Assembly (NCBI GenBank): GCA_046565645.1
Contig: JBKHYD010000040.1
Span: 71,785-135,784 of the forward strand
Origin: Acidimicrobiia bacterium
Lineage (GTDB): Bacteria > Actinomycetota > Acidimicrobiia > Acidimicrobiales > VFJN01
Reading direction: 5' to 3'
Length of the DNA: 64,000 nt
Numbering within the stretch: position 1 is the first letter of the stretch; every line of letters begins with the position of its first letter. Positions 21,081-63,604 of the stretch are shown here, one piece after another. The position numbers were made by a program, and so were the translations under genes. The notes under the pieces are model-generated. The model was not told the origin of the DNA, did not search any database, and saw nothing but the letters and a program-made list of their open reading frames with translations.

Positions 21081-21130
21081 GCGCTCAGCGTACCGGCGGG
21101 CCCCCCGATCCTCGAAGCCAGTACCGCACA

Positions 21131-21181
21131 ACGTCTGTGTGGGTTTTCAAGCCGTCAGGGCGCAAGAACCCACACAGACGT
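21131..21181. repeat. Hairpin repeat copy B: perfect 15-bp inverted repeat ACGTCTGTGTGGGTT / AACCCACACAGACGT with 21-nt loop
   Basis: Read directly. The loop TTCAAGCCGTCAGGGCGCAAG resembles the copy A loop. Lies between the DUF3048 gene end and the pdxS start. Confidence 0.8.
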
Positions 21182-21187
21182 CGTCGG

Positions 21188-51982: not shown

Positions 51983-52074
51983 CGATTCCCTCCGCCGGCA
52001 TTACCCGGTTCAGGTTCCTCGGGTCGGTGGCGTGCCCTGCGGCGTGGCCACCCTCTCAGCCCGGCTACCCCGAG
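51983..52074 (-). promoter_or_regulatory. TPP (THI-box) riboswitch
   Basis: Minus-strand read: CTCGGGGTAGCCGGGCTGAGAGG...GACCCGAGGAACCTGAACCGGGTAATGCCGGCGGAGGGAATCGGCAG followed by the ATG. Contains the conserved GGGG-GC, CUGAGA, ACCC and GAACCUGA-C-GG-UAAUGCC-GCG-AGGGA elements. Its 3' GGAGGGA doubles as the RBS. Confidence 0.88.
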
Positions 52075-52157
52075 CTCCCCTTCGTGCCCCCACCACCCTA
52101 GCGGCCGCGCCCCCCGAACCGTCCCTCGAGTTCGGGCGGCCCGGTACCGTCGGCGCC

Positions 52158-53306
52158 GTGGAACGCACCCTCTTCGACGCCGAGCACGACATGTTCCGGA
52201 ACTCCGTCCGGTCCTTCATCACCAAGGAGGTGGTCCCCCACCACCAGCGCTGGGAGGCCGAGGGCATCGTCGACCGCGACCTCTTCGCCAAGGCGGGGGC
52301 CAACGGGTTCCTCGGCATGGCCGTGCCCGAGGCGCTGGGGGGAGGAGGGGTGGACGACTTCCGCTACAACGTCGTCATCGCCGAGGAGGTCCAGCGCTCC
52401 GGGGTGAACGCCGCCGGGCTGGGATGGACCCTCCACAACGACATCTGCCTCCCCTACTTCCTCACCCTCACCACCCCCGAGCAGCAGGAGCGGTGGCTGC
52501 CGGGGATCTGCTCGGGCGAGCTGATCACCGCCATCGCCATGACCGAGCCAGGCATCGGCTCCGACCTGGCCTCAATGACGACCACCGCCATCCGGGACGG
52601 CGACGACTACGTCGTGAACGGCTCCAAGACGTTCATCACCAACGGCATCAACGCCGACCTCGTGATCACCGCGGTGAAGACGGACCCCGGCGAGCGCCAC
52701 GCCGGCATGAGCCTCCTCGTCCTGGAGCGGGGCATGGAGGGCTTCAAGCGCGGCCGCAACCTCGAGAAGGTGGGCATGCACGCCCAGGACACGGCCGAGC
52801 TGTTCTTCACCGATGTGCGGGTGCCGGTCGCCAACCGCCTCGGGGAGGAGGGCAGCGGCTTCCGCTCCCTCGTGGCCAAGCTGCCCCAGGAGCGGCTCTC
52901 GATCGCGGTGACCGCCGTGGCGCAGGCCCGCCAGGCCCTCGACTGGACGCTCGAGTACGTGAAGGACCGCACCGCCTTCGGGGTCCCGATCGGGTCGTTC
53001 CAGAACAGCCGCTTCCGGTTGGCCGAGATGGCCACCGAGATCGAGATCGCCCAGACGTTCACCGACCGCTGCGTCCTCGCGCTGAACGACGGCACCTTGA
53101 CGGCCGAGGAGGCGGCCATGGCGAAGTGGTGGTGCACGGAGCTGGCCAAGCGGGTCGTCGACACCTGCGTCCAGCTCCACGGCGGCTACGGCTACATGCT
53201 GGAGTACCCCATCGCCCGCGCCTACGCCGACGTCCGCATCACCACGATCTACGGAGGGACCACGGAGATCATGAAGGAGATCATCGGGAGGAGCCTCGGT
53301 GTCTGA
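52158..53306 (+). CDS. Acyl-CoA dehydrogenase
   Basis: ORF 52032..53306 trimmed to the GTG at 52158 (VERTLFDAEHDMFR). ITAIAMTEPGIGSDLA and a C-terminal YGGTTEIMKEIIGR-type ending. Confidence 0.9.
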   Translation: MERTLFDAEHDMFRNSVRSFITKEVVPHHQRWEAEGIVDRDLFAKAGANGFLGMAVPEALGGGGVDDFRYNVVIAEEVQRSGVNAAGLGWTLHNDICLPYFLTLTTPEQQERWLPGICSGELITAIAMTEPGIGSDLASMTTTAIRDGDDYVVNGSKTFITNGINADLVITAVKTDPGERHAGMSLLVLERGMEGFKRGRNLEKVGMHAQDTAELFFTDVRVPVANRLGEEGSGFRSLVAKLPQERLSIAVTAVAQARQALDWTLEYVKDRTAFGVPIGSFQNSRFRLAEMATEIEIAQTFTDRCVLALNDGTLTAEEAAMAKWWCTELAKRVVDTCVQLHGGYGYMLEYPIARAYADVRITTIYGGTTEIMKEIIGRSLGV

Positions 53307-53784
53307 GACCTCACGCTACGACCGGCTCGTCAACCGGTTCTCGGCCACCCGCGCCGGCTCGTGGATGGTGAAGCACGTCGCCTCCAGGATCGACCCGGTC
53401 ATCTTCAAGGCCACCAACGGCCGCTTCACCTCGACCGGGCGCCCCACCCTGCCGATGCTCGCCCTCACCGTCCCGGGCCGCAAGAGCGGCGAGCCGCGCA
53501 CCGTCCAGCTCGCCTACCACCGAGACGGCGACGACCTCCTCGTCGTGGCCAGCGCGATGGGCCAGGAGCGCCACCCGGCCTGGCGCTACAACCTGGAGGC
53601 GGCCGGCGGCGGCGAGGTGCAGGTGCGCGGCGACCGCTACCGGGTGACCGCCACCGTCCTCTCCGACGACGAGAAGGCCCGGCTCTGGCCGGCGATCGCA
53701 GAGACGATCCCCCAGATGCACACGTACGTCCGCCGCACCGACCGCAACATCCGGGTCTTCCGCCTCACCCGAACCGACGTCTGA
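53299..53784 (+). CDS. Deazaflavin (F420H2)-dependent nitroreductase family protein (DDN-like)
   Basis: 161 aa. L(L)[29 protein letters not shown]...HPAWRYNLEA and RNIRVFRL are typical of the family. Confidence 0.88.
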   Translation: MSETSRYDRLVNRFSATRAGSWMVKHVASRIDPVIFKATNGRFTSTGRPTLPMLALTVPGRKSGEPRTVQLAYHRDGDDLLVVASAMGQERHPAWRYNLEAAGGGEVQVRGDRYRVTATVLSDDEKARLWPAIAETIPQMHTYVRRTDRNIRVFRLTRTDV

Positions 53785-53804
53785 GGGCCCTCGGAGGGCT
53801 CCGC

Positions 53805-53825
53805 CGTCCAACGTCTTGCGACAAC
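53805..53825. repeat. 21-nt repeat arm CGTCCAACGTCTTGCGACAAC (left arm of a perfect inverted pair with 54161..54181)
   Basis: Exact reverse complement of 54161..54181, verified base by base. Followed by a local hairpin containing CCGCTACGGCTC. Confidence 0.85.
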
Positions 53826-53882
53826 CCTCCGCTACGGCTCGTCGCAGCTCAGGGCCTGGTGGCCGAGAAGGCGATGGGTCAG

Positions 53883-54005
53883 CTAGCCGGTGAAGAGGAC
53901 GGCGAGCACGACGGCGAGGAAGCCCACCGCCATGACATAGCGCGTGGCCCGCGCCTGCTCCTCGATCGCCCGCCCTATCGCCTTCAGGACCTCTTCCTCG
54001 TTCAT
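53883..54005 (-). CDS. Small tail-anchored membrane peptide (40 aa), hypothetical
   Basis: ATG at 54005 is preceded by AAGGA 7 nt upstream. MNEEEVLKAIGRAIEEQARATRYVMAVGFLAVVLAVLFTG. Third codon positions are G/C in nearly all codons, matching host coding bias. Confidence 0.5.
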   Translation of the reverse strand: MNEEEVLKAIGRAIEEQARATRYVMAVGFLAVVLAVLFTG

Positions 54006-54100
54006 CGTCACATCCTTGTCGACCGAGCGAGCGGAGCACCCGACCATGTGCCGGTTGGAATCTCGACGCGGCGTGGTGAACGACCTCGGTCTCGTCCCCT

Positions 54101-54181
54101 GTCCAGCGTCTTGCGACAGGTGGGCGGTCCGGACGGTCGCGTCGCCGCGGCCCCGGTCTCGTTGTCGCAAGACGTTGGACG
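54101..54181. repeat. Long hairpin: GTCCAGCGTCTTGCGACAG (54101..54119) paired with GTTGTCGCAAGACGTTGGACG (54161..54181), 41-nt loop
   Basis: 17 of 19 positions are complementary, read directly. The right arm is also the perfect partner of 53805..53825. Confidence 0.8.
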
Positions 54182-54211
54182 AACGGTGGGCGCCGGACCG
54201 TGGAACGACGG

Positions 54212-58398: not shown

Positions 58399-58403
58399 CG
58401 GAC

Positions 58404-59132
58404 CTAAGCGCCGAGGAGCTCGCGCCCGTACGCCAACAGCTCCCCGCCCGCTCGACCCTTGGGCGGTTTGCTGAGGATCGCAAGCCTCCTGGCCTGGCCG
58501 AGCTGTCCGAGCACCGTCTTGTAGGCCTGGTGAGTCTCTGCTGCGAGCGCCTTCACCGGGGCGGGGTCGCCCTCGTCCACCAACTCCAGGTACCTAGCGG
58601 CGAGCCGCGCGTACACCTCGTGCGGCACGCCGCGACGGCCCGTGCGCTTTCCAAGATCGTCTGGCCACTCACGATCCAAATCAGGCAGTTGAGGACGGAT
58701 ACCAGATAGCTGCTGTCGCGCTACCCGCTCGAGCTCGTCGAGAGGAAGGCGACGTAGGAGGCGCATCGTGATCCCGCCTGGCGGCCTTCGAGCGCCCCTG
58801 AAGTACTGCCGGCCAGCCCATGGTTTCGTGGTTCGAAACAAGGCCAAGTGGCTCCCGTCGTCGAGTTCTGCGCTGCGCTGCAGCGTGGACATGTTCTCGA
58901 TCCCGACCCCGATCGGGATCCAGTCGCTGACCGAAAACACCCGAAGGTCGACCAACTCGAGACCAGTGACTCCATGGGTGAAGCGCATGGCCACCGCCCA
59001 CGCGCCTGTCCATTCCTGATCCTCATCGTCGACCCAGTTGATGGCCGGCTGGACGACCGTCACCGAGCGCTCGCCGAACTCGTCGACGGCTTCGGCGAAG
59101 TCGACCGGGCGGGCATCGGTGAATGGGTGCAC
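58404..59132 (-). CDS. Hypothetical protein (242 aa), divergent from the island HTH gene; possible C-terminal HTH
   Basis: GTG-initiated ORF with no recognised family. The C-terminal segment AYKTVLGQLGQARRLAILSKPPKGRAGG resembles a DNA-binding helix. Lower GC than its surroundings by eye. Confidence 0.6.
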   Translation of the reverse strand: MHPFTDARPVDFAEAVDEFGERSVTVVQPAINWVDDEDQEWTGAWAVAMRFTHGVTGLELVDLRVFSVSDWIPIGVGIENMSTLQRSAELDDGSHLALFRTTKPWAGRQYFRGARRPPGGITMRLLRRLPLDELERVARQQLSGIRPQLPDLDREWPDDLGKRTGRRGVPHEVYARLAARYLELVDEGDPAPVKALAAETHQAYKTVLGQLGQARRLAILSKPPKGRAGGELLAYGRELLGA

Positions 59133-59194
59133 GCATCGACAATACCCGATGGCCGGCCTCAGTATCGGACCTACTCGGATTCAGGAGGTCCCAC

Positions 59195-59503
59195 ATGGAA
59201 CGGTTGCTCTATTCGATCCCCGAAGCGGCTGCGCGGCTCGGCCGAGGGAAGTCAACGGGCTACGCGATGGCCGCAAGCGGGGAGCTCGAAACCGTGCTCC
59301 TCGGCTCGCGTCGGATGGTCCCGGCCGATGCGCTCGAAAAGCTCATCGGTCGACTCCGCGCCGGATCGCCCAGCGTGCAGCGCCTCGTCGATCTGATCGA
59401 GGACGACGGCCGGCTCGACGTCACCCGCATCCCGCCCGGCACGACCCTGGCCGACCTCGAGGCCGCCCAGCGCATCGTCGCCGAGCGGCAGGTCCCGGCA
59501 TGA
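59195..59503 (+). CDS. Excisionase/MerR-type helix-turn-helix DNA-binding protein
   Basis: ATG at 59195 lies 6 nt after AGGAGG. LLYSIPEAAARLGRGKSTGYAMAASGELETVLLGSRRMVPADALEKLI is the Xis-family HTH pattern. Confidence 0.8.
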   Translation: MERLLYSIPEAAARLGRGKSTGYAMAASGELETVLLGSRRMVPADALEKLIGRLRAGSPSVQRLVDLIEDDGRLDVTRIPPGTTLADLEAAQRIVAERQVPA

Positions 59504-59796
59504 GCCCCCCTGAACGCGCCGCCTCCCCGGGCTGGGGATCCGGGGAGGGCGACAGGATCACGCTGGACGGCACGATCTCCCCCAAGGATGCCACACACGA
59601 CCCTGAGTTGTGCGCCACCTGCCTGCGTGGGGTGCGGCCGTGGACCCCGGAGCGCCGGGAGGCTGCCGCCAGCTACGCGGCGACATCGGGCCGGCGCATC
59701 GACCACCTGCCTCATGGTGAGCGCTCACCTGGCCCGCTCGAGGACGTGCTGACACGGTTCCACCCGGACTGGAAGCGGGAGGACGCCCGTGTCTGA
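59500..59796 (+). CDS. Hypothetical protein (98 aa)
   Basis: ATGA overlap with the HTH gene. Last 98 codons of ORF 59038..59796. No recognised motif. Confidence 0.5.
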   Translation: MSPPERAASPGWGSGEGDRITLDGTISPKDATHDPELCATCLRGVRPWTPERREAAASYAATSGRRIDHLPHGERSPGPLEDVLTRFHPDWKREDARV

Positions 59797-60910
59797 GCCG
59801 TCCTACATCCACCTGACCAGTCAGGAGCTGGCCGAGCACGACGCGTTCCCCGTTCCCACCCCCCATGGTGGGGAACGCGGGAACACGCTCTACGCGGACG
59901 TCGCCGCCCTCCTCGACGGCACGATCCCCGAGCCGCCAGAGCCCACGATCCTCTACCGCAGCGACGGACACGGGATCTTCTACGAGGGGCAGGTCAACGT
60001 CCTGTTCGGGGATCCCGAGAGCGGCAAGACGATGGTGGCCGAGGCCGCCGCCGCCGCCACGATGCTGGCCGGCAAGCGCGTCCTGTTCCTCGACCTCGAC
60101 CACAACGGGCTGCAGTCCACCGTGGTCCGGTTCATGGACATGGGTGTCCCCGAGGAGATCCTCCGGGACCTCGACCGGTTCCGCTACGTCGAACCCGAGG
60201 ACCGGCTGCACCTCCTGGCCGTCATCGAGGACGCCAAGCGGGAACGATGGCCACACCTAGCCATCGTCGACAGCCTCGGCGAGCTCCTGCCCCTCATGGG
60301 CCTGAACAGCAACAGCCCCGACGACTTCACCATGGCCCATGGCCTGGTCCTCAAGCCGCTGGCCATGACCGGCGCCGGGGTCATCGGCATCGACCACCTG
60401 CCCAAGAACCAGGAGAACAAGATCAACGGGCCCACCGGGACCGCCGCGAAGCGCCGGGCCATCGGTGGCGTTGCGATCCGCGTGGTGGTCAAGGAGCAGT
60501 TCACCCCCGGCAAGGGAGGCTCCGCCTACCTCACGCTCAACAAGGACCGTCACGGAGGGCTGCGCCGCTGGTGCCCCACCGAAGGACGCGAACCGGTGGT
60601 GGGCCTGTTCACCCTCGAGAGCCGCCCCGGTGAGCTCATCTGCATGATCCACGCCCCGGAGGCCGGCGACGCGTCCAAGGCCGAAGGCGTCAGTGACGAG
60701 GACCTGGCCGAGCTCGACCTCCTCGACCCGCCGCCCACGTCGGTCCGCGACGTGAAGGAGCGCCTTCGGTGGAGATCCGACAGGGCCGCCAATGCGCTAC
60801 GTCACTGGCGTTCCCGCGTTCCCACCCCCCTAGGGGGGGAACAGGGGAACACGCCCTCATCCGTTCCCCAAGCGTTCCCGGGGAACGGGGAACGCGAGGG
60901 GGAGCGATGA
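59789..60910 (+). CDS. RecA-fold AAA ATPase (RepA/DnaB-like replication protein) with C-terminal winged-helix-like tail
   Basis: 373 aa. GTG behind GGGAGGA. Walker A GDPESGKT and Walker B-like LAIVDSLGEL. Typical of AAA_25-type ATPases of actinobacterial integrative elements and phages. Confidence 0.82.
   Translation: MSEPSYIHLTSQELAEHDAFPVPTPHGGERGNTLYADVAALLDGTIPEPPEPTILYRSDGHGIFYEGQVNVLFGDPESGKTMVAEAAAAATMLAGKRVLFLDLDHNGLQSTVVRFMDMGVPEEILRDLDRFRYVEPEDRLHLLAVIEDAKRERWPHLAIVDSLGELLPLMGLNSNSPDDFTMAHGLVLKPLAMTGAGVIGIDHLPKNQENKINGPTGTAAKRRAIGGVAIRVVVKEQFTPGKGGSAYLTLNKDRHGGLRRWCPTEGREPVVGLFTLESRPGELICMIHAPEAGDASKAEGVSDEDLAELDLLDPPPTSVRDVKERLRWRSDRAANALRHWRSRVPTPLGGEQGNTPSSVPQAFPGNGEREGER
59843..59888. 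repeat. Palindromic GTTCCC/GGGAAC cluster 1 (GCGTTCCCCGTTCCCACCCCCCATGGTGGGGAACGCGGGAACACGC)
   Basis: Hexamers at 59845, 59852 (GTTCCC) and 59871, 59879 (GGGAAC), read directly. Lies inside the 5' end of the ATPase CDS. Confidence 0.85.
60808..60896. repeat. Palindromic GTTCCC/GGGAAC clusters 2 and 3
   Basis: GTTCCC at 60810, 60818, 60863 and 60874. GGGAAC at 60837, 60845, 60881 and 60888. Cluster 2 is nearly identical to cluster 1. Lies inside the 3' end of the ATPase CDS. Confidence 0.85.
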
Positions 60911-61101
60911 GCAACGGCCGCCCCTTCCGCCGCCAGCTCGTCGACCTGCTTGGCCCCCTCGACGGGGAGCGCATCCCCGGTGGTTGCGCCGAGTGTGACG
61001 CCTACCAGACCGTCGCCGCCCTCGAAGCCGGGGTCTGGACCGTGAACGTCCACCACGACCGCGACTGTCCCGCCCTCGCCGCCATGGAGGCCCAGCAGTG
61101 A
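60907..61101 (+). CDS. Hypothetical small Cys/His-containing protein (64 aa)
   Basis: ATGA overlap with the ATPase stop. GGCAECDAY...HHDRDC suggests a metal-binding knuckle. Confidence 0.5.
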   Translation: MSNGRPFRRQLVDLLGPLDGERIPGGCAECDAYQTVAALEAGVWTVNVHHDRDCPALAAMEAQQ

Positions 61102-61391
61102 CCGTCCACCAGTTCCCCCACAAGGCCCGTCCGATCGACGACGAGATGCTGGCGCGGCTCCGGGCCACCCTCACCGCCGAGCCCCTGACTCGGGAAGCGC
61201 TGCTGGCCGGCCCGATCGACGCCATCCGCGAGCCAGGCCCATGGGTCGCTAGCGGGCGGCTGACGGACAGGCTCGAACGCCTCGTGGCCATCGGCCAGGC
61301 CCTCCAAGGCCCAGGCCGGGTGAACCTGGCCGATGGCGTCTACGCCATCGCCGTCATCATCGACGACATCGTCCGCCAGGACCCCGCATGA
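61098..61391 (+). CDS. Hypothetical protein (97 aa)
   Basis: GTGA overlap with the upstream gene. ORF 61098..61391. Confidence 0.5.
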   Translation: MTVHQFPHKARPIDDEMLARLRATLTAEPLTREALLAGPIDAIREPGPWVASGRLTDRLERLVAIGQALQGPGRVNLADGVYAIAVIIDDIVRQDPA

Positions 61392-61525
61392 GCGCCACCT
61401 GCCGCCACGACCGGACCCCGCCGTGCGTCTACTGCAGCGCCAAGATCCGGGCCGACCACTACTGGGAGATGCTCCGCTGGCAGGCCGAGCTCCGCCGCCA
61501 AGGCAAGCGCCGCCGTGTCTCGTGA
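61388..61525 (+). CDS. Hypothetical small Cys-rich basic protein (45 aa)
   Basis: ATGA overlap with the upstream stop. MSATCRHDRTPPCVYCSAKIRADHYWEMLRWQAELRRQGKRRRVS. Below the ORF-track length cutoff, so translated by hand. Confidence 0.35.
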   Translation: MSATCRHDRTPPCVYCSAKIRADHYWEMLRWQAELRRQGKRRRVS

Positions 61526-61754
61526 GACCGCCCGCACCAAGGCCGACCGGCTCCTGATCGAAGGGCGCGTCGTGATCCTCGAAGCCGGGCGCTACGGCGT
61601 GGTGGCCCGCGTCCGGGGCGAGGGCGTGATCCACACCACCCGCTACGGGTTCGGCGCCTGGACCTGCACCTGCCCCGCCCGCACCGACCAGTGCAGCCAC
61701 CTCATCGCACTACGCCGCGTCGTCGCCATCGACCTACAGGAGAAGCCCCGATGA
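61515..61754 (+). CDS. SWIM-type zinc finger protein
   Basis: 79 aa. WTCTCPARTDQCSHLIALRRV matches the CxCx(n)CxH SWIM pattern. Confidence 0.7.
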   Translation: MSRETARTKADRLLIEGRVVILEAGRYGVVARVRGEGVIHTTRYGFGAWTCTCPARTDQCSHLIALRRVVAIDLQEKPR

Positions 61755-61827
61755 CCAACCCCCCGGTACCTCGCTATGGGGCCGGTGCTGTGACCCCCGC
61801 CCCCCACGCACCCGGAGGCCACCGCTG

Positions 61828-62160
61828 ATGGCGCTACGCCCATGCATCGACTGCGGCACCCCGACCACGACCACCCGGTGCCGGGGGTGCCAGGCCCCCC
61901 TGTCCCGTGCCAAGTGGCTCAACAACCCGAACCGCGACCTGAACTACCGCAAGCTCCGAGCCGCGTACGCCCGAGCCCTGCCCCTCCCCTGTGCCATCTG
62001 CCAGGAGCCCATCACCCACCAAGGCCACGACCGTGACGCGCTCACGCTCGACCACGTCAGGCCATGGGCTGACGGCGGCAGCAACGACCCATCGAACCTC
62101 AGGCCCACGCACAAGCGGTGCAACAGCGCCCGAGGACGGCGGGATGGGGGCACCCCATGA
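61828..62160 (+). CDS. HNH endonuclease
   Basis: 110 aa. Paired CxxC motifs plus LDHVRPWADGGSNDPSNLRPTHKRCN (HNH core). GGAGG lies 9 nt upstream. Confidence 0.88.
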   Translation: MALRPCIDCGTPTTTTRCRGCQAPLSRAKWLNNPNRDLNYRKLRAAYARALPLPCAICQEPITHQGHDRDALTLDHVRPWADGGSNDPSNLRPTHKRCNSARGRRDGGTP

Positions 62161-62210
62161 CGACGGTCGACGCCCATCCGACGCGGCGCCCTCATGCAGG
62201 GACCTCGGAA

Positions 62211-62264
62211 TGTGTACGGGTGTGGGGTTCCTGGGACTCCATCTCCACCGCGCTGTGTACGGGT
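62211..62264. repeat. 11-bp direct repeat TGTGTACGGGT x2 (62211 and 62254) in the noncoding gap after HNH
   Basis: Read directly. Followed by the hairpin GTCTGGGG-13 nt-CCCCAGAC at 62282..62310. Confidence 0.7.
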
Positions 62265-62410
62265 TACCGACCGCAGGGCGGGTCTGGGGCCCGTCCGGAG
62301 ATCCCCAGACTCACGCAGGAGGCGACCGCTATGCTGAGGGGCGTCGCGTCTGGCATGCGTCGACCGTGCTCACCCCCACCGCCCCCTGCGATCACCAAGG
62401 TGGTGTCGAA

Positions 62411-62878
62411 GTGAGCGCCGTGAGTCCGATCGACTGGTCCGACGAGTCGATCGACTGGGCCCGGTTCGCGGCTGAGGTCGGACGCCAGATCCAGCAGGAG
62501 TGCCTACCCGAGCAGTTGCTGCCTGGCCTGCTGGCCGCCGACGAGGGCGAGGTGGCGGTGGTGTTCGAGCGCCGCGATCAGATGGGCCCGAACGAGCCGG
62601 AGAACTTCGGTGCCGAGGTGGCCCGGGTTCCGTGGTGGCGTGTCCGTCACCCCGATCCCGACCGGCTCCGCAAGGCAGCCGCAGCGGCGCTAGATCGGTT
62701 CCCGACCCACCTAGCCGACCAGCTCTCGACCGCCATCAACCGAGGCGAGCTCGAGGTGATCGCCCCGTCCCATGAGGATTGGGTGTTCGTGCACGTCCGG
62801 CTTGGCGAGGAAGTGGTGAAGCTCTACGCCGCACACCGCCGCGCGGTGGTGGACGGGTGGCCCGAAGATGAGGGTTGA
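62411..62878 (+). CDS. Hypothetical acidic protein (155 aa) at the position usually held by packaging genes
   Basis: GTG at 62411 behind AAGGTGG. Last 155 codons of ORF 61991..62878. No terminase or portal motif recognised. Confidence 0.55.
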   Translation: MSAVSPIDWSDESIDWARFAAEVGRQIQQECLPEQLLPGLLAADEGEVAVVFERRDQMGPNEPENFGAEVARVPWWRVRHPDPDRLRKAAAAALDRFPTHLADQLSTAINRGELEVIAPSHEDWVFVHVRLGEEVVKLYAAHRRAVVDGWPEDEG

Positions 62879-63052
62879 ACATACGTTCGCCACGGGTGCT
62901 ATGCTGTCAGCTAGGTCTCACCGCGCCGGCAGCCCCCCTGCGAAGCGGTCACGATCGGACGCTTCGCCGCCCTCGCCGCAACCCCCAGAGCGGGCCGGGA
63001 GGGACGCAAGGTCGCCGAGGAGCTTCATCCCTCGCGCCCCGGAGGCGAACCA

Positions 63053-63604
63053 ATGAGCGTCCTACACCGGACCAGTGCCGACCTCGAGCTTCGTTCCGAT
63101 GGGGACGGCCGCACCGTCTACGGCATCGCGGTGCCCTTCGGCCAGGTGGCCGAGGTCCCCGACGACTACGGGTCGTCCTACCGGGAGACCTTCGTACGAG
63201 GCTCGTTCGCTCGGACGATCGTCGAACGCGGCAGCCGGGTGAAGCTGCTCGCCAACCACGACCGCCGCCGGTTCCCAATCGGTCGGCCCACCGTGCTGCG
63301 CGAGGACGCTGCGGGGCTCTACATGGAGGCTCGCATCAGCAAGACCCGTGACGGCGACGAAGCGCTCGAGCTCATCCGAGACGGTGCGCTCGACCGGTTC
63401 AGCATCGGGTTCCGGCCCATCCGCCACCGCGTCACCCCCGAGCGGGTGGTGGAACGAACCGAGGTCGCGCTCAGCGAAGTGAGCCTCGTCGCGTTCCCCG
63501 CCTACGACGGCGCAGTCCTGGCCGGTGTCCGGTCAGGCCCCTTCCTCACCCTCGAGGCCGCCCGAAAGCGCCTCGCCCTCATCGACAAGGACTTCCTCCT
63601 ATGA
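63053..63604 (+). CDS. HK97 family phage prohead protease
   Basis: 183 aa. GYAVPFG-like YGIAVPFGQV, LLANHD, RFSIGF and EVSLVAFPAY are hallmark blocks of the S78 prohead protease. GGAGG lies 7 nt upstream. Confidence 0.9.
   Translation: MSVLHRTSADLELRSDGDGRTVYGIAVPFGQVAEVPDDYGSSYRETFVRGSFARTIVERGSRVKLLANHDRRRFPIGRPTVLREDAAGLYMEARISKTRDGDEALELIRDGALDRFSIGFRPIRHRVTPERVVERTEVALSEVSLVAFPAYDGAVLAGVRSGPFLTLEAARKRLALIDKDFLL

Follow-up and report, generated by a model that had tools for sequence, protein, structure and literature searches.

Within the window analysed here, a stretch of 64,000 nucleotides (nt) from an Acidimicrobiia bacterium (assembly GCA_046565645.1, contig JBKHYD010000040.1), three copies of a 20-bp box, YGTCCARCGTCTTGCGACAR, are present at 53805-53825, 54099-54120 and 54161-54181. 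These repeats are probably the recognition sites, GTCC-N8-GCGACA(A), of a winged-helix protein of 105 amino acids (aa) encoded directly beside them, and together they would form an operator-like array. An earlier note on this DNA had proposed a mobile unit resembling a miniature inverted-repeat transposable element (MITE), an mRNA with pairing ends or a three-site operator array. The last of these is the reading that the evidence supports, with a predicted winged-helix protein as neighbour and a motif that is shared by the loci of distant homologues. The boxes, termed S boxes, and the gene next to them are the following.

53804 to 53825, plus strand: S box 1 (CCGTCCAACGTCTTGCGACAAC), a solo box 20 nt past the stop codon of a reductase gene
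54099 to 54120, plus strand: S box 2 (CTGTCCAGCGTCTTGCGACAGG), second member of a convergent pair
54161 to 54181, minus strand: S box 3 (CGTCCAACGTCTTGCGACAAC on the minus strand), 5' member of the convergent pair
54529 to 54212, minus strand: gene of the 105-aa winged-helix protein, which borders the gap and is the candidate box-binding protein

Read as its reverse complement, 54161-54181 is identical to CGTCCAACGTCTTGCGACAAC at 53805-53825, with a spacing of 335 nt, and this 21-bp inverted repeat, as described in the earlier note, holds on re-reading the sequence. The same is true for the third copy, which has the orientation of the left copy and matches at 17/18 positions over 54101-54118 and at 17/19 over 54101-54119; its distance to the right arm is 44 nt with 18-nt arms and the previously described 41 nt with 19-nt arms. 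Box 1 shares its orientation with box 2 and repeats box 3 exactly in inverted form, and the GCGACA ends of boxes 2 and 3 point toward each other across these 41-44 nt. Box 3 starts 30 nt past the stop codon of the winged-helix gene and box 1 sits 277 bp beyond the convergent pair, the array bracketing a gene for a 40-aa peptide. The whole gap, 53785-54211 (427 bp), separates two gene groups converging on it.

Apart from these copies, the 64-kb window is free of boxes, intact or degenerate. When up to 3 mismatches are allowed, the 18-mer of the box occurs at exactly three sites in the window against 0.05 expected, and none of 100 shuffled windows reached three sites. A position-weight scan using a matrix from 22 copies revealed no other site in the window at 14 to 29 bits. 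The window therefore holds perfect copies or nothing, unlike a decaying repeat family. A literature search for the box sequence returned unrelated primers only.

The link between the boxes and the protein is carried by four distant loci (L113, L115, L116 and L119), which encode homologues of 45-50% identity and were picked by protein similarity only. All four (4/4) contain the motif G[TC]CC-N8-10-GCGACA in 2-4 copies within about 250 bp of the gene. For L113, an unbiased repeat search returned GCCCGCTTTTGAGCGACAAC / GCCCACTTCCTAGCGACAAC, a convergent pair whose start lies about 165 nt downstream of the gene. L115 (Mycobacterium sp. 3519A) harbors two direct GCCCACGTACCGAGCGACAAC copies starting at -132 and -57 as well as two inverted copies downstream, beginning 7 nt past the stop codon, and its boxes are each embedded in a repeat of about 38 nt. 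In L116 (Mycobacterium kyorinense), GCCCTCCTCCTAGCGACAAG and GCCCGGCTATCAGCGACAAG start at -174 and -56, and L119, a metagenome contig, has three upstream copies, two of which converge across 3 bp (AGCGACAAAGTCGCT). Upstream boxes are thus present in three of the four loci, namely L115, L116 and L119, whereas those of L113 are downstream only. The placement in these three fits what would be expected for autoregulatory operators.

In 233 kb of unrelated high-GC DNA, the motif expression matches at a background rate of 0.034 per kb. For a region of 1.1 kb this predicts about 0.04 matches, and 2, 4, 2 and 2-3 were observed in L113, L115, L116 and L119, respectively. Elsewhere in the distant 6-kb loci, no matches were found. 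All S boxes also fit G[TC]CC-N8-10-GCGACA; the two blocks that are conserved family-wide are the positions invariant among the S boxes, and the variable positions lie within the N8 spacer. The motif travels with the 105-aa protein family across genera. Since distant relatives, including those of Mycobacterium, carry the same two-part motif beside their genes, the boxes are best understood as putative docking sites of this protein.

Two further loci agree with such a link. In L042 (4608-6135), a close relative of the window, the winged-helix gene is cut to its last approximately 35 codons and an M23 peptidase gene on the opposite strand fills the rest. Its three S boxes have 1-3 changes each, more than at any locus with an intact gene, and this coincidence of gene loss with the most diverged boxes would agree with a link between protein and box. 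In L120 (2-985, ~1040), the winged-helix gene known from L119 is directly preceded by a transposase gene of the IS110 family, and in comparison to L119 (2835-2915) the homology breaks inside the third box, between GCCCGCCTC and GGAGCGAC. IS110-family elements target specific palindromic sequences, and an insertion of this kind inside the box array would likewise agree with the link. An extra feature of L116 (3001-4104) is a gene with Ub-Mut7C/Mut7-C RNase domains, which lies 40 nt past the family gene on the same strand and has a PIN-domain gene nearby. Here, the family gene and the Mut7-C gene could represent a toxin-antitoxin-like pairing, in that lineage only.

For the 105-aa protein, a profile search over 1.84 billion representative proteins with a cut-off of E <= 0.001 revealed at least 500 relatives. 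In a second profile search the sources were named; these comprise Mycobacterium kyorinense, Mycobacterium sp. 3519A, other Mycobacterium, Nitriliruptoraceae, Aquihabitans and 'Actinomycetota bacterium', and all of the members found there are annotated as hypothetical. The protein itself has no Pfam, NCBIfam or PDB sequence match and no curated family at threshold, and the family was not found in viral contigs, phages or plasmids. Among 60 family members searched against Pfam, 11 weakly match AbiEi_4 and 5 match HARE-HTH, and the AbiEi models of PADLOC matched three family members with E = 5e-4 to 7e-3.

A structural model of the protein was built by AlphaFold2 (AF2) from a 60-sequence alignment and reached a predicted local distance difference test score (pLDDT) of 94.9 and a predicted template modeling score (pTM) of 0.86; a model from the single sequence was useless (pLDDT 47). 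The former displays the order strand-H1-H2-strand-H3-beta-hairpin wing-long H4. A Foldseek search against the PDB returned winged-helix DNA-binding proteins only, with E about 0.02-0.05 and template modeling (TM) scores of 0.45-0.58, namely the MarR-like 2hr3, MepR, the PadR-type proteins Pex and Rv3488, the ArsR-type proteins HlyU, SqrR and BigR, and RTP. Fifteen alignment columns are invariant or nearly so (L15, R16, G43, R49, K52, S55, D56, L58, R59, E61, G65, R66, R72, Y75 and T85). Of these residues, R49, K52, S55, D56, R59, E61, G65 and R66 lie in or just past H3, and R72 and Y75 lie in the wing, a clustering in the model that would be expected for conserved DNA recognition. On this basis, the gene is predicted to encode a winged-helix protein of a wide, unnamed actinobacterial family.

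Mechanistically, the recognition helix H3 probably reads the invariant GCGACA block, and the GTCC block, about one helical turn away, might be read by the wing, the N-terminal arm or a partner subunit. The long C-terminal helix could serve dimerisation. Occupied boxes would then repress or block transcription that enters or starts in the gap, which would affect the gene of the 40-aa peptide and read-through from either operon, and a small number of further genomic boxes may be served by the same protein. The physical binding, the outcome as repressor or roadblock and the control of the mini-gene are what we infer from the comparisons described here.

The 18-20-nt box is also present at non-orthologous loci, and in total 25 copies from six independent loci were compared. 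The consensus of the copies is YGTCCARCGTCTTGCGACAR. Convergent pairs are found in L071, L073 and L101; their loops measure 23, 23 and 14 nt and show no relationship in sequence. Solo boxes are found in L064 and in the orthologous L087/L061. Five of the contigs with non-orthologous boxes derive from one metagenome, which is also the source of the orthologous locus L045. The genes adjoining these unlinked boxes encode a cyclase, an alpha/beta hydrolase, a YgjP-like protein, a Zn peptidase and an ALO oxidase, and no common functional theme was found among them. In all 25 copies the GTCC and GCGACA blocks are invariant, and variation is limited to positions 6, 10 and 11, all within the N8 spacer.

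Between the window and L004, the arms of the pair are identical at 35/36 positions, in comparison to 63-77% identity at fourfold-degenerate sites of the flanking genes, and the 44-nt loops give no significant alignment. The solo box of L087/L061 is kept at 17/18 positions and the adjacent intergenic DNA has diverged; box 1 is another conserved solo box. Compensatory double changes are not present among the 25 copies, and three hairpins show an uncompensated A/G difference. Since the boxes are more conserved than synonymous sites, the loops cannot be aligned, solo boxes are kept and compensatory changes are lacking, the boxes are under purifying selection at the level of their sequence and not under selection on a hairpin.

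Several observations weigh against an operator function of the boxes. The comparison covers only four independent distant loci, and the motif expression was partly refined after these had been viewed. No box occupies the promoter of the 105-aa gene in the window or in its close relatives, where all of them are located downstream of this gene, and a scan of the gap for promoter and terminator consensus sequences found none, including no sigma-70-like promoter. Furthermore, the protein lacks a curated family match and a sequence relative in the PDB. Every adjacent pair is convergent, with the GCGACA ends facing each other, and is able to form a hairpin, and the gaps of the pairs vary from 3 to 56 bp, which is atypical of operators that are bound cooperatively. 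Several further boxes are found 10-75 nt past stop codons or between convergent genes (L071, L073 and L087), and this placement fits 3'-end hairpins better than classical operators. The strict convergence, the range of the gaps and the placement after stop codons are not explained by a simple repressor model. As the pairs consistently sit at 3' ends and between convergent genes, they might serve as roadblocks or insulators and not to repress promoters.

The same placement, which most copies share, and the uniform, hairpin-forming orientation of the short-range pairs would fit REP-like structural RNA hairpins, that is, 3'-end stem-loops that terminate transcription or stabilise the mRNA and belong to a small spread family, the neighboring protein being irrelevant. 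If transcribed, the pair of boxes 2 and 3 would form a hairpin of -47.5 kcal/mol on the minus and -60.1 kcal/mol on the plus strand, and the convergent pairs overall are very stable (-42 to -60 kcal/mol, z-scores -3 to -6.5). Also a second, unrelated hairpin family in the window is located 2-3 nt past stop codons. On the contrary, the arms are the same everywhere without compensatory changes, while the loops (14-56 nt) are unrelated in sequence, and solo boxes are conserved. No U-tract follows the pairs, no terminator-like site was found in the gap, and three of the hairpins contain A.C mismatches when read on the sense strand of the gene upstream. Mycobacterium homologues have tandem direct upstream copies, which are unable to form hairpins. 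Finally, degenerate copies are absent from the window, and Rfam gave only a sub-threshold miRNA-like hairpin match at the locus and nothing in the whole window. Structural RNA hairpins are for these reasons an unlikely explanation of the boxes.

The second hairpin family itself is present at 832-884 and 21128-21184 of the window, with arms of approximately ACAACGTCTGTGTGGGTT / AACCCACACAGACGTYGT and 21-nt loops that are alike (..AGCCGT(C)AG(G)GCGCAAG). A 12-mer in one of these loops (GAGCCGTAGCGG, position 851) also flanks S box 1 (position 53829).

The operator-like array is embedded among the following genes.

52032 to 53306, plus strand: acyl-CoA dehydrogenase gene of the left group
53299 to 53784, plus strand: F420H2-dependent reductase gene of the left group, bordering the gap
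54006 to 53884, minus strand: mini-gene of 40 codons for a 40-aa peptide (MNEEEVLKAIGRAIEEQARATRYVMAVGFLAVVLAVLFTG), between box 2 and box 1
55806 to 54580, minus strand: acyl-CoA dehydrogenase gene upstream of the 105-aa gene

The 105-aa gene lies 48 nt downstream of the latter acyl-CoA dehydrogenase gene on the same strand. The mini-gene, as the only open reading frame (ORF) of the 427-bp gap, had been pointed out in the earlier note and is confirmed at these coordinates. As read from the sequence, its GC content at third codon positions (GC3) amounts to 0.93, and 8 nt upstream of it there is a Shine-Dalgarno sequence, AAGGA. Its homologues are 74-93% identical, with differences mostly at third codon positions, and the peptide is small and has a hydrophobic C-terminal helix. 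No Pfam or NCBIfam family matches the product. The mini-gene is a real, conserved gene for a small membrane peptide. Its homologues (L102-L110) occupy unrelated contexts; in L102, L103 and L105 the homologue precedes a conserved 162-aa gene of unknown function.

In the window, the convergent pair is located 95-175 nt upstream of the mini-gene, and a hok-type long-range pairing within its mRNA, of box 3 with either box 2 or box 1, might gate translation of the 40-aa peptide. Three mutually exclusive pairings would be possible, the small peptide with its hydrophobic helix would fit, and when the 411-nt minus-strand RNA was folded, as the earlier note had proposed, the structure of minimum free energy used the pairing of box 3 and box 1 (z = -2.1). 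The pairing of the mRNA ends is therefore physically possible, but it is conserved at no homologous mini-gene locus and is not needed to explain the conservation of the boxes. None of the nine homologous loci (0/9) has flanking complementary arms, and none has S boxes, even when five mismatches are allowed. Homology of these loci to the window begins at the Shine-Dalgarno sequence and stops at the stop codon, and boxes occur at many loci without a small ORF. A gating of translation by the boxes is extremely improbable. Because its homologues are free of boxes and the homology is limited to the stretch from Shine-Dalgarno sequence to stop codon, the mini-gene and the repeats are independent entities that are merely interleaved at this locus.

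A search for close relatives of the 105-aa protein returned a handful of matches, all metagenomic. The contigs of these relatives and two contigs from a metagenome box scan were compared as five versions of the locus. L001 is 98% identical and has the same architecture as the window. L004 contains the convergent pair alone (S-44 nt-S'), L042 contains S, S', S' with 82 nt in place of the ORF of the window, and L045 and L002 contain S, S, S'. The ortholog of the box next to the winged-helix gene (box 3) was found in all five, and the counterpart of the third box in L042 lies about 10 nt from the stop codon of the same reductase gene. Boxes without the mini-gene ORF are present in L002, L004, L042 and L045. 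The content of the gap varies among the close relatives, being the mini-gene in the window, a methyltransferase gene in L002 and nothing in L004. In L002, this class I methyltransferase frame (1072-1741, ORFs of 170 aa and 43 aa) comes after the boxes, between the array and the reductase gene, and the pair lies approximately 50-130 nt upstream of it. The methyltransferase insertion shows the gap to be a hot spot for gene gain and loss.

This variable content, the perfect 21-bp inverted repeats that enclose a small gene and the insertion sequence (IS) elements beside or inside the box arrays of L101 and L120 would all suit a mobile or recombination element, in which the boxes are MITE terminal repeats, attC-like sites or the borders of a segment, either invertible or resembling a cassette, with which the mini-gene arrived. 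The suggestion of a MITE-like unit was not borne out, since relatives keep the boxes without the ORF and degenerate copies are lacking. The proposed check on copy number and presence of the 21-mer and the 377-bp unit found the complete unit again only in the 98%-identical L001, and no other copy in the collections of genomes, metagenomes and viruses that were scanned. The 18-mer gave 15 single chance matches and no pairs in 185,579 species genomes, from which it follows that the lineage is not among the species representatives. The scan of the viral collection gave two chance matches in AT-rich contigs. Direct repeats indicative of a target-site duplication do not flank the pairs, in agreement with the earlier note, which saw none by eye, and the genes scanned within about 6 kb include no integrase, transposase or recombinase. 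A MITE was rejected on account of the missing further copies and target-site duplication, the coding gene inside and the box-free homologues of that gene.

For attC sites, the outer ends GTCCAAC...GTTGGAC, as read from the sequence, fit the R''/R' consensus RYYYAAC/GTTRRRY. They were rejected nevertheless, as the AAC triplet is polymorphic (about half of the copies read GTCCAGC/GCTGGAC), the stems of 18-21 bp are perfect or have one mismatch and show neither extrahelical bases nor an unpaired spacer, and neither a cassette array nor an integrase was found, the latter among the scanned neighbors. An inversion between the outer boxes (S, S', S' versus S, S, S') was rejected because the spacers are largely too diverged and the alignable ones, the hairpin spacers of L004, L045 and L002, run in forward orientation. 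An inverton, that is an invertible promoter switch, was rejected since the window and L001 show one orientation and no recombinase is present among the scanned neighbors. L101 contains an IS21-like element (258-2690, istA 348-1856, istB 1853-2638) 150 bp from its S-box pair. This element has its own unrelated 41-nt terminal inverted repeats with two GGGGACTT motifs, and boxes as IS21 terminal repeats were rejected for that reason. Altogether, a mobile origin of the boxes is highly improbable; the 377-bp unit does not appear to be mobile, and the boxes seem to be retained while the intervening and following content changes.

Further along the window, at approximately 58400-64000, a prophage-like segment of lower GC content (~0.70) is present. 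Its genes include HTH_17 (excisionase-like, 59123-59503), AAA_25 (59789-60910) and a Caudovirus prohead protease (S78, 63053-63604), and no integrase was identified in the inspected part of the segment.

If the boxes are indeed the recognition sites of the winged-helix protein, an unannotated actinobacterial family would gain a predicted fold, a DNA motif (GYCC-N8-10-GCGACA) and candidate target sites. Members of this family, for which neither Pfam nor NCBIfam has a model, are present in Mycobacterium, Nitriliruptoraceae, Aquihabitans and numerous uncultured lineages, and the hypothesis is directly testable in cultivable mycobacteria. It would also illustrate that where intergenic DNA of high GC content contains long and perfect inverted repeats, these can be pairs of protein-binding sites instead of MITEs or RNA structures. 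Otherwise, its practical significance is modest.

Among known systems, REP and REPIN sequences are short repeats outside genes; they are found near the 3' ends of genes, frequently in inverted doublets but also as singlets (PMC3116915, PMC3337134). The S boxes resemble these, as they are short and extragenic, form inverted doublets with hairpin potential as well as singlets and lie near 3' ends. In contrast, their copy number is very low (three in 64 kb, at one locus) without a cloud of degenerate copies, the spacers of the doublets are unrelated in sequence and length, a 5' GTAG is absent, and the motif co-occurs with a winged-helix gene family and not with a transposase. No RAYT (Y1 HUH transposase) was found among the subset of window genes scanned against Pfam. 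A REP/REPIN nature was rejected on copy number, the lack of degenerate copies and the unrelated spacers.

With regard to the protein, the best fold matches are PadR-type, MarR and ArsR regulators (Pex with a TM of 0.58, MarR-like 2hr3, MepR and Rv3488), and the combination of a winged helix with one long C-terminal helix in about 105 aa resembles small, Pex-like regulators of the PadR type. Unlike these families, the protein has no Pfam PadR, MarR or HTH_5 match, and the box is bipartite and asymmetric and not a short palindrome.

A third comparison concerns the replication terminator protein RTP, whose Ter sites are about 30 bp long and strictly fixed in orientation, the first pair being inverted beside rtp. 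Here as there, asymmetric sites in strictly fixed orientation go together with a small winged-helix protein with a long C-terminal helix, and fold matches to RTP (1f4k, 1j0r and 2dqr) were obtained; the RTP-Ter sites are likewise few per genome. In Bacillus subtilis, a ter site beside the rtp gene gives autoregulation (PMC10331603). By analogy, the boxes could act as a polar DNA roadblock, in which tightly bound, orientation-specific convergent sites between converging genes, one pair of them next to the gene of the protein itself, stop replication forks and/or RNA polymerase. If true, it would be the first system of this kind, fork-trap-like or a protein-roadblock terminator, to be described in Actinomycetota. 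However, the fold similarity is generic (E about 0.04-0.05, TM 0.47-0.50), several convergent pairs occur on separate contigs, and the upstream boxes of L115, L116 and L119 resemble ordinary promoter operators. The cumulative GC skew of the window peaks at about 50-52 kb, and its sign change at about 52 kb coincides with a switch in gene strand, the genes being mostly on the minus strand from 0.9 to 52 kb and mostly on the plus strand from 56 to 64 kb. Because the GC3 skew follows the coding strand, this peak is uninformative on an origin or terminus. A polar roadblock is considered quite improbable.

The closest characterised precedent for a box array bound by the winged-helix protein would be AbiEi/Rv2827c. 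There, each monomer binds one asymmetric repeat of 23 bp. Two such repeats form an inverted pair separated by 3 or 13 bp, a promoter has up to four repeats, and the outcome is autoregulation (PMC7319586). The analogy has its limits: the 105-aa protein has neither a C-terminal antitoxin domain nor a DUF1814 toxin partner, and the window protein itself matches no AbiEi model (Pfam AbiEi_4, PADLOC). The gaps between boxes range from 3 to 56 bp, and the boxes lie downstream in the lineage of the window and also at unlinked loci. Membership in the AbiEi family is not indicated, as no match at threshold, no second domain and no neighboring nucleotidyltransferase (NTase) gene were found. Nevertheless, repeats that adjoin the regulator gene in inverted pairs or multiples, as in the AbiEi systems, are found in the window, L001, L002, L004 and L045 as well as in the distant L113, L115, L116 and L119. 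Both systems combine a winged helix-turn-helix, here a predicted one, with asymmetric repeats of about 20-23 bp in inverted pairs, up to four beside the gene. In line with this, the family shows weak similarity to the AbiEi winged helix-turn-helix in hidden Markov model searches, and the upstream boxes of the Mycobacterium homologues would fit autoregulation.

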